In this document: positions 1 through 1,097 of the stretch, one piece after another | Layout of the letters: every line of letters starts with the position of its first letter | Position numbering within the stretch: the stretch's first letter is position 1 | Assembly (NCBI RefSeq): GCF_003334385.1 | Contig: NZ_QOWN01000114.1 | DNA length: 1,409 bases | Reading direction: 5' to 3' (one strand) | Source of the DNA: Escherichia coli | GTDB lineage: Bacteria; Pseudomonadota; Gammaproteobacteria; Enterobacterales; Enterobacteriaceae | Translations under genes and position numbers: made by a program | The notes under the pieces: generated by a model | Seen by the model: the letters and a program-made list of their open reading frames with translations, nothing else | Databases searched by the model: none | What the model was told of the DNA's origin: nothing

Positions 1-1097
1 ATCTGGAACTTTTCCGGGAAAAGATAGGAAAAACGCATCTGGCAGAGGCGCTGTGGGCAGAGATTGACAACAGTCAGTTGAAGGACGAGATGGCGGAAAT
101 GCAGACCACCATCACAGAAACCCGCAATGAAATCACGCAGACGGTCAGTAAAACGCTGGAGGACCAGAACGCCACCATACAGCAAATCCAGCGTGTGCAG
201 ACGGACACAAATAATGACCTGAACAGCATGTGGGCGGTGAAGCTACAGCAGATGCAGGATGGTCGTCGCTATATTGCCGGTATCGGTGCCGGTATTGAGA
301 ACACCCCTGACGGGATGCAGAGCCAGATACTGCTGGCAGCGGACCGTGTGGCATTCATTAATCCGGAGAATGGTGATACCACACCCGCACTGGTCACGCA
401 GGGGGGACAGACGTTTATCAATGAGGCCCTGATAAAGGTTCTTACCGCCCCCACCATTACCAGCGGCGGCAATCCCCCGGCATTCTCCCTGACGCCGGAC
501 GGCAGGCTGACGGCCCGTAATGCCGATATCAGCGGGAATATCAGTGCCAGTTCCGGTACGCTGAATAACGTGACGATTGCGGAAGACTGCACCATTAATG
601 GAACGATGAGCGCTGACCGAATCATTGGTGATATCGTCAAGGGATACACGGTTGATATGGGGCAGGGCGTAATGACTCAGAACCAGCTGACTTTTCAGAA
701 AATGATTTTGCTGAAAGACAACATGCCGTTTGATCGCAAGCTTATGCTTATGGCGTATTCATTTTCCAGAGGTGAATTCATCATGAAGATAAATGACAAA
801 GTTGTCGTTCATGCCAGGTCAGGCAAAGTCAAAACCGGGGAGCGGGAGGTCCAGATTTCCAAAAACGCCAGCAGATATGAGCCGGTATATTCTGATGTTG
901 GCGGAAGTGCGTCAGGCTCATGGGGTATTCCTGCCGGACAGGGTGATGCGCGGGTTGAAATTACATTCAGGTATGAAGCAGGTGTGCTTTTTTACAGGGG
1001 TGGTTCAATACTTCATGATACGAGTCAAATTCGGATCCCGGACCCGGTTCTGTTTTACCTGAAATCCTATACAGACGATTTTGATACCGCATCGTGA
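1..1097 (+). CDS. J: Host-specificity / central tail fibre (tip attachment) protein, lambda gpJ-like; C-terminal ~365 codons, 5'-partial (codon phase starts at nt 3; true start is upstream of the window)
   Basis: Seen in sequence: the frame containing the 78..1097 ORF has no stop back to nt 3 (LELFREKIGKTHLAEALWAEIDNSQ precedes the TTG at 78), so the ORF is the tail of a longer gene; stop TGA at 1095-1097. From memory of lambda gpJ (not searchable here): motifs such as LTAPTITSGGNPPAFSLTPDG, NADISG, SGTLNNVTIAE-CTINGT and GDIVK closely match the conserved region that precedes the C-terminal receptor-binding domain of lambda J. Gene order, J followed by an Stf-like gene, agrees. Confidence 0.85.
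   Translation, partial: LELFREKIGKTHLAEALWAEIDNSQLKDEMAEMQTTITETRNEITQTVSKTLEDQNATIQQIQRVQTDTNNDLNSMWAVKLQQMQDGRRYIAGIGAGIENTPDGMQSQILLAADRVAFINPENGDTTPALVTQGGQTFINEALIKVLTAPTITSGGNPPAFSLTPDGRLTARNADISGNISASSGTLNNVTIAEDCTINGTMSADRIIGDIVKGYTVDMGQGVMTQNQLTFQKMILLKDNMPFDRKLMLMAYSFSRGEFIMKINDKVVVHARSGKVKTGEREVQISKNASRYEPVYSDVGGSASGSWGIPAGQGDARVEITFRYEAGVLFYRGGSILHDTSQIRIPDPVLFYLKSYTDDFDTAS

Follow-up and report, generated by a model that had tools for sequence, protein, structure and literature searches.

The tip of protein J decides which outer-membrane protein a lambda-like phage uses. The known lambdoid J tips use LamB (lambda), OmpC (434, A8, 1A2 and phi330) or evolved OmpF. Four bottom loops of the lambda J domain contact LamB (PMC11101478), and Maddamsetti et al. 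2018 describe J residues 960-1132 as a module that recombines independently and forms lineages defined by indels (PMC6646904). Precedents for both mechanism and modularity are found in PMC11101478, PMC6646904 and PMC11338833. GpJ tips that are specific for LamB although they have little or no homology to the lambda tip are reported from Drexlerviridae and related phages (legend of Fig. S6, bioRxiv 10.64898/2026.04.02.716166). Modular exchange of the J region is already known, and the tip exchange described here is ordinary phage mosaicism. What is specific to this locus is a rare, deep-branching tip class that is missed by domain models.

The window analysed is a stretch of 1,409 nucleotides from Escherichia coli (contig NZ_QOWN01000114.1). 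It begins within gpJ of an E. coli prophage, of which it holds the 3' end, continues with a 184-nt spacer and ends inside the side tail fibre gene stf (Table 1). The best explanation, to which a probability of about 80% is given, is that J carries a diverged Ig-like tip on a ~670-nt cassette of lambdoid E. coli prophages, and that this cassette has been moved by homologous recombination.

Table 1. Features of the 1,409-nt window. Domain names for the J regions are taken from PMC11101478.
Feature	Position (nt)	Strand	Remarks
gpJ (tail tip attachment/host specificity protein J), 3' 1095 nt	3-1097	+	364 codons plus stop
J segment aligning to the helical-shaft region of lambda J	3-185	+	98-100% shared with many E. 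coli prophage J genes (against L088 and L090)
Phage_Tail_Tip (PF09327), beta-prism central straight fibre, divergent allele	177-560	+	Pfam, identity bins
5' junction zone, last conserved stretch (…NNVTIAEDCTINGTMSADRIIGDIVK)	561-646	+	Cassette start, alignment ends
Putative receptor-binding domain, 151 aa	642-1094	+	Predicted divergent Ig-like beta-sandwich, GpJ C-terminal type
Allelic hot spot in the receptor-binding domain	924-1040	+	8 nt differences between two main alleles
J-stf spacer, 184 nt	1098-1281	+	No convincing ORF
Terminator-like short hairpin plus T8 run	1247-1270	+	Consensus scan only: 1 found against 0.4 expected
stf start (prophage tail fiber N-terminal domain)	1282-1409	+	Window ends inside the gene; RefSeq annotation

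Translation of the window shows that frame 3 of the plus strand is open from nt 3 to the stop codon at nt 1095-1097. The encoded segment shares 99.9% identity with gpJ of E. coli strain 2018-166 (NZ_CP075632.1, locus L002; annotated there as "phage attachment tail tip protein J"), where it corresponds to aa 813-1176 of a 1176-aa protein, and it matches lambda J with an E-value of 1e-70 in BLASTP. Window aa 59-186 match the Pfam family Phage_Tail_Tip (PF09327, E 4.7e-31), and aa 1-320 match the NCBIfam model lambda_TipJ (NF049904, E 5.4e-100) with a score below the full-length cut-off because the window holds only a fragment of J. In 2018-166, gpJ follows the tail genes L, K (a C40 peptidase) and I, and the annotated contexts (L002, L004-L007 and the phage PhiR12_5) have the gene order M-L-K-I-J followed by a side tail fibre gene. 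The profile matches and the gene order both identify a lambda-type tail tip protein J, and the earlier note on this DNA, which had called the gene a lambda-like J from the letters alone, was right. The stf gene starts with an ATG codon at nt 1282, and its first 38 aa are 74% identical to lambda Stf/orf-401.

The identity to lambda J in BLASTP is strong through …CTINGT…GDIVK, after which only a D-x-PFDR motif is aligned, in agreement with the claim that the match to lambda gpJ ends at GDIVK. Codons in this frame start at positions divisible by three, and therefore GDIVK is encoded by nt 627-641 and the variable domain by nt 642-1094; the boundary proposed in the earlier note stands, while its coordinates (628 and 643) are one base off. 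The domain gives no match to the Pfam family PF12421 (Ig_GpJ_C) even at E-values up to 10, and in the same scan the last 132 residues of lambda J match that family at 1.2e-74. No NCBIfam match was obtained for the isolated domain, and phmmer against the PDB chain sequences found nothing at E-values up to 10. The supposition that this receptor-binding module differs from that of lambda is supported.

J C-termini from IMG/VR contigs, retrieved with a conserved central-fibre peptide, were used for comparison, and together with lambda they comprise 37 distinct non-carrier sequences. They are 128-138 aa long, with the exception of two that are shortened by early stops, and the full-length ones end in …ISDLLVVVMKKxTAGISIS or near variants. 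The canonical tail …(I/A)SD(L/V)..V..KK…G(I)S(I/V)x is present in all 37, if only in part in the two early-stop sequences. The window domain is 151 aa long and ends in …PVLFYLKSYTDDFDTAS. The canonical C-terminal strand and tail are absent from it, and in the MAFFT alignment only a single K in its end (…IPDPVLFYLKSYTDDFDTAS) is aligned.

The same alignment reveals motifs that the window domain shares with lambda-type tips (D26, F30-D31-R32, N51, P97-A-G99-x-G101 and K141) at 14-21% identity, and D26, D31, R32, N51, G99, G101 and K141 are invariant. When the domain alone is compared with a lambda-type profile, hhalign returns a probability of 56% (E 1e-4). Two intermediate classes come from E. 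coli prophages with J bodies similar to this one: L089 from strain JNEC-KY174 (157 aa; 32% identity over 102 aa, E 7e-18) and L091 from strain LZSFT34 (151 aa), and the latter reaches the J tips of phage 434 and lambda with 25-33% identity in tblastn. A profile of all three classes matches the lambda-type profile with 98.4% probability (E 8.9e-15, 96 columns). The HMMER alignment with the A8 gpJ chain extends through PAGQG, and a PHROGs family labelled "unknown function" (phrog_5269) is related to the domain at E 2.4e-17.

The C-terminus thus appears to be a far-diverged member of the usual J tip domain family, with homology to lambda-type receptor-binding domains that becomes detectable through the intermediate prophage classes. 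The idea of a foreign C-terminus was rejected, since the motifs and the three-class profile match place the domain among J tips. Direct alignment of the C-terminal ~150 aa to the lambda tip, at 14% identity, is nevertheless not a good match, as the earlier note had expected. The tip class lies at the edge of profile recognition and is therefore missed by receptor-binding annotation based on Pfam or NCBIfam.

Structure prediction of the domain with AlphaFold2 gives a gpJ-like beta-sandwich (pLDDT 76) with a low-confidence loop at residues 113-136, and the best Foldseek matches of the model are to lambda gpJ. The predicted Ig-like beta-sandwich can be superimposed on solved gpJ receptor-binding domains. 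Part of this agreement in fold is circular, since lambda-type and A8-type sequences were in the input alignments, whereas the three-class profile match is independent of the fold result. Relative to lambda in the MAFFT alignment, the domain has lost the loop following FRG, has gained an insertion of ~22 residues that is modelled as a beta-hairpin (aa 61-86), and has a longer loop ahead of the last strand. The receptor-contacting loops L1-L4 of lambda do not appear to be conserved, with large indels between the motifs and 14% identity in the MAFFT alignment. This makes a lambda-type LamB binder less probable, but does not lower the possibility of LamB binding as such.

Nucleotide comparisons with the closest non-carrier J genes (L088 and L090) show a stepwise pattern. 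The identity of 98-100% continues to window nt ~185, falls to 50-80% over nt ~185-570, which coincides with the PF09327 block, and is lost from nt 578-646; 98-100% identity is found again at nt ~1235-1257, shortly before stf. In megablast and blastn, alignments to the other J genes compared stop at nt 578, 640 or 646. Genomes carrying the same tip show a complementary distribution of differences. There are 39-45 mismatches between carriers in nt 201-570 (39-40 for L005 and L006 against the window) and none in nt 571-1200 for L005 and L006 against the window (Fisher p ~1e-18). Between nt 560, the position of the last mismatch, and nt 1229, where the next one occurs, these carriers agree with the window throughout. 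A cassette of ~670 nt (nt ~561-1228), comprising domain and spacer, is thus identical between carriers although the adjacent central-fibre segment differs by ~11%.

There is consequently more than one junction: an outer one at nt ~185, the 5' end of the cassette at nt 561-578 and its 3' end at nt ~1229-1257. In place of the single junction near nt 640 proposed in the earlier note, the identical cassette breaks at nt 561-578 and other breakpoints are found at nt ~185 and ~1229-1257. Brödel et al. placed their graft close to the natural 5' breakpoint, at lambda aa 964. The PF09327 block is a mosaic unit of its own. It begins sharply at nt ~185, varies by ~11% among carriers, and differs by 20-50% from J genes that are otherwise nearly identical.

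The sequences that follow the J body in non-carriers are different: a canonical tip plus lom in L088 and L090, the L089 tip plus hok/gef in L089, and the L091 tip in L091. The cassette is combined with lambda-type head and tail modules in PhiR12_5 and STEC17-183, and with HK97-type modules in SW070917 and in 2018-166, where the tape-measure gene is 3243 nt. Rapid divergence in place would offer a different account, in which no exchange has occurred and the junction merely separates constrained from unconstrained parts of a vertically inherited J. The residual homology at motif level to lambda-type domains fits such a history, as do the known diversifying selection on J receptor-binding domains (PMC6646904) and the exclusively non-synonymous differences between tip alleles. 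Divergence in place does not, however, explain how identical cassettes come to adjoin central-fibre segments that differ by 11%, how near-identical J bodies can have unrelated C-termini and different downstream genes, or why one cassette occurs on two types of virion module, and this history is highly improbable. Recombination is required because of the identical cassettes on divergent flanks, the swapped C-termini and the two module types. The reading of the C-terminus as a swappable module, which the earlier note had put forward, is well supported by the identical cassette beside ~11%-divergent flanks and by the near-identical J bodies with other C-termini.

Under recombinational exchange, the cassette would move between J genes through homologous recombination, using the conserved end of the central-fibre coding sequence (…ADISG…GDIVK) as 5' flank and the conserved stf leader as 3' flank. 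The same tip cassette is found in more than one prophage in several genomes, and one copy is interrupted by IS4. In SW070917 (NZ_CM129862.1) there are up to 6 matching tip places, including 3119272-3119726, 3934002-3935410 and 2234561-2239841. Multiple prophage copies per genome imply exchange between co-resident prophages.

A drop in base composition towards the 3' end of J was the first sign of a junction, and the six 60-nt GC counts on which it was based (32, 37, 25, 27, 29 and 23) are all exact on recount. Inside the window the shift is marginal and suggestive only: the best split of the coding sequence, at nt 561, separates 54.5% from 46.5% GC and is reached by 158 of 2000 codon shuffles. 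The sliding-window and GC3 scan of the whole 3531-nt J gene of L002 leaves no doubt about the drop. GC is 59.1% (GC3 71.4%) in the J body, against 46.6% (GC3 49.0%) in the last 453 nt, and the lowest of the 875 in-frame 453-nt windows in the J body is not below 53.0% GC. The change-point in the whole gene, at window nt 517, has a |z| of 5.63 that is reached by 0 of 2000 shuffles.

Other tips show the drop as well. Among the further J receptor-binding classes sampled, the majority have 43-53% GC and a GC3 of 37-58%, lower than their own upstream 900 nt; the exceptions, with GC above that of their upstream region, are the class of lambda (56% GC, including the close L042 variant) and L023. Low GC is a feature of the whole exchangeable tip pool, and since most J tip classes show the same drop it gives no pointer to a donor. 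A recent origin of the domain from beyond the E. coli lambdoid pool, in a phage whose host has lower GC and with the GC drop as its mark, is for this reason improbable, even though GC3 falls by ~22 points at the domain to a level where no 453-nt window of the body is as low in GC, and even though the window loses its DNA homology with the other J genes compared over nt ~578-1235. The search for relatives also speaks against it: none was found in 100,044 species-representative genomes, in plasmids or in phages other than those of E. coli, the IMG/VR scan gave only nine near-identical loci, all cluster members examined are E. coli, and the nearest relative found (L089) again belongs to an E. coli prophage. 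The donor of lower GC suggested in the earlier note is accordingly not specifically supported.

Among 5,426 complete E. coli genomes, 29 carry the 455-nt tip sequence, in 52 places altogether and always with at least 98% identity. It is present in five phage records (PhiR12_1, PhiR12_2, PhiR12_2_star, PhiR12_4 and PhiR12_5), for which K-12 MG1655 or E. coli C is listed as host, and the nine IMG/VR contigs were recognised by a peptide-pattern scan, the method that was also used on the GTDB species representatives and on plasmids. A J identical to the 1176-aa protein occurs on 154 contigs, and all named cluster members that were examined are E. coli. The tip class is thus rare and confined to E. 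coli data. L089-type tips had no match in the phage collection, and the supplements of PMC11338833 do not include the tip sequence of the window.

Searching 1.84 billion cluster representatives with the domain in HMMER gave four matches, of which three are pieces of the same protein and the fourth is a spurious repeat protein, and a search for homologous proteins returned short fragments only. Orphan status based on the four HMMER matches was rejected, given that clustering at 50% identity is governed by the J body and hides tip variants; real homologues were missed by this search, as is shown by the L089 relative found afterwards. One J central-fibre fragment that is 72% identical to the window (P0008) is deposited as Enterococcus faecium and is almost certainly contamination or a mislabelled enterobacterial contig.

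The two main tip alleles differ at 8 nt within 117 nt, and all differences are non-synonymous: G95S, A103V, G114D, R119M, T127K, Q129K and P133H in domain numbering, the last through two changes. They surround the PAGQG turn and the low-confidence loop in the model. With 352 non-synonymous and 102 synonymous sites, the chance that all eight differences are non-synonymous is ~0.13. Selection on the tip alleles is suggestive only, but would fit the diversifying selection documented for the specificity region of lambda J (PMC6646904).

The J reading frame is intact in the 29 genomes, and J is annotated as one CDS in three of the five records of plaque-forming PhiR12 phages, among them PhiR12_1, which has K-12 as its host. 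In the PhiR12_5 record one G is missing in CCCCCGG at window nt 479 (L001 ~6479) so that J is split into two CDS, and J of PhiR12_2 is annotated as split in the same way (records PV340554.1 and PV340550.1). Either the homopolymer was misread in sequencing, or a phage that forms plaques really has a frameshift in J.

An overlapping or antisense gene could in principle shift base composition, as could decay of a non-functional C-terminus. The region does contain an ORF of 89 aa on the plus strand (nt 793-1062) and one of 64 aa on the minus strand (nt 967-1161), and databases list frameshifted fragments of it as proteins in their own right (P0003 and P0005). Neither alternative frame, however, has an excess of silent changes among the allele differences, and the start of the minus-strand ORF is lost in the second allele; on these two grounds the overlapping gene was rejected. 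Decay is contradicted by the frame of J, which is open in all 29 genomes, and by the plaques formed by phages with an intact J. The window had no match to any Rfam family, which likewise disfavours both possibilities, and taken together they are scarcely credible. The "hypothetical proteins" P0003 and P0005 read the region in the wrong frame (…MSRYILMLAEVRQAHGVF…; compare the plus-strand ORF) and then rejoin the J frame. They are frameshift artefacts of draft assemblies, not genes.

The spacer between J and stf occupies the slot that holds lom or hok/gef in other cassettes. In the L089 cassette (NZ_AP045170.1) it is a hok/gef toxin gene (L089 6250-6390), and not lom, that is found between J and stf. 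Nucleotides 1128-1195 of the spacer are 75% identical to the spacers of L089 and L091. The hairpin with its T8 run is 12-35 nt upstream of the stf start codon, inside the block with 98-100% conservation, and could be a terminator after J or a part of the translational control of stf. Downstream of the pair formed by stf and a DUF4376 gene, every carrier examined (L002 12238-13563, L004-L007) has a gene with a YadA C-terminal domain, similar to trimeric autotransporters and with ~43% GC, followed by small hypothetical genes and dinI. This YadA-domain gene seems to be adhesin-like cargo that is conserved in the prophage group.

On the preferred reading of an exchanged, diverged tip, the region would be the receptor-binding domain at the C-terminus of J, the trimeric tail-tip protein, with a rebuilt set of loops. 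By analogy with the solved gpJ complexes of lambda and A8, the central fibre would end in three such domains whose distal loops would enter an outer-membrane protein, and this binding would trigger rearrangement of the fibre and opening of the tail. The trimeric-tip mechanism is taken over from PMC11101478.

The receptor is probably an outer-membrane protein that is present in both K-12 and E. coli C, because the PhiR12 records list such hosts, provided that the phages need the J tip to infect. The default guess is a trimeric porin (OmpC, OmpF or the LamB class). Divergence from lambda is in itself compatible with LamB as receptor, because GpJ tips that bind LamB with little or no homology to the lambda tip exist; the view in the earlier note that LamB is probably not used does not follow from the sequence. 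It is rather doubtful that the window domain and the L089 type form a separate deep branch of J tips for a receptor beyond LamB, OmpC, OmpF and FhuA; on such a branch the seven-residue difference between alleles might tune the recognition of receptor variants. A literature search for PhiR12 receptor data gave none, the likely source (the Brenes and Laub 2025 panel, cited in PMC13190303) being outside it. Because the tip is carried by phages grown on laboratory strains, the receptor is directly identifiable. A new tip class is also a potential targeting module for engineered lambda particles, which have already been made by grafting natural J C-termini.

In 2018-166 a full-length ompC with 43.6% GC is located between the tail genes M and L (L002 1834-2997; NZ_CP075632.1 190583-191746). 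It was considered as a clue to the receptor and dropped, as it is absent in PhiR12_5, STEC17-183 and SW070917. The ompC gene is a strain-specific insertion and may have a role in superinfection or porin replacement.

Compared with known systems, the lambda gpJ tip (PF12421; PDB 8XCK and 8XCJ, bound to LamB) has the same C-terminal position as the window domain, directly after …GDIVK, and the motifs D..FDR, N(G/D), PAGxG and a C-terminal K are common to both. In contrast, the lambda tip is 133 aa and ends in …KKQALGISVV while the window domain is 151 aa and ends in …KSYTDDFDTAS, with 14-21% identity to lambda-type domains. The domain of the A8 gpJ chimera, solved in complex with OmpC (PDB 9WCA and 9WCB), is one of the canonical 133-aa …TAGISIS group, and the window domain is outside that group; no close relation to the demonstrated OmpC tips (434, A8 and 1A2) was found. 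The module of Maddamsetti et al. (PMC6646904) recombines independently in the same way as the window tip, but was described in a set of 1207 highly similar full-length homologues. The nearest relative found is L089, which also begins with GY… and has the FDRKL and SG.W…AG.GD.R motifs in common with the window domain, although both L089 and L091 are different alleles with terminal loops and tails of their own.
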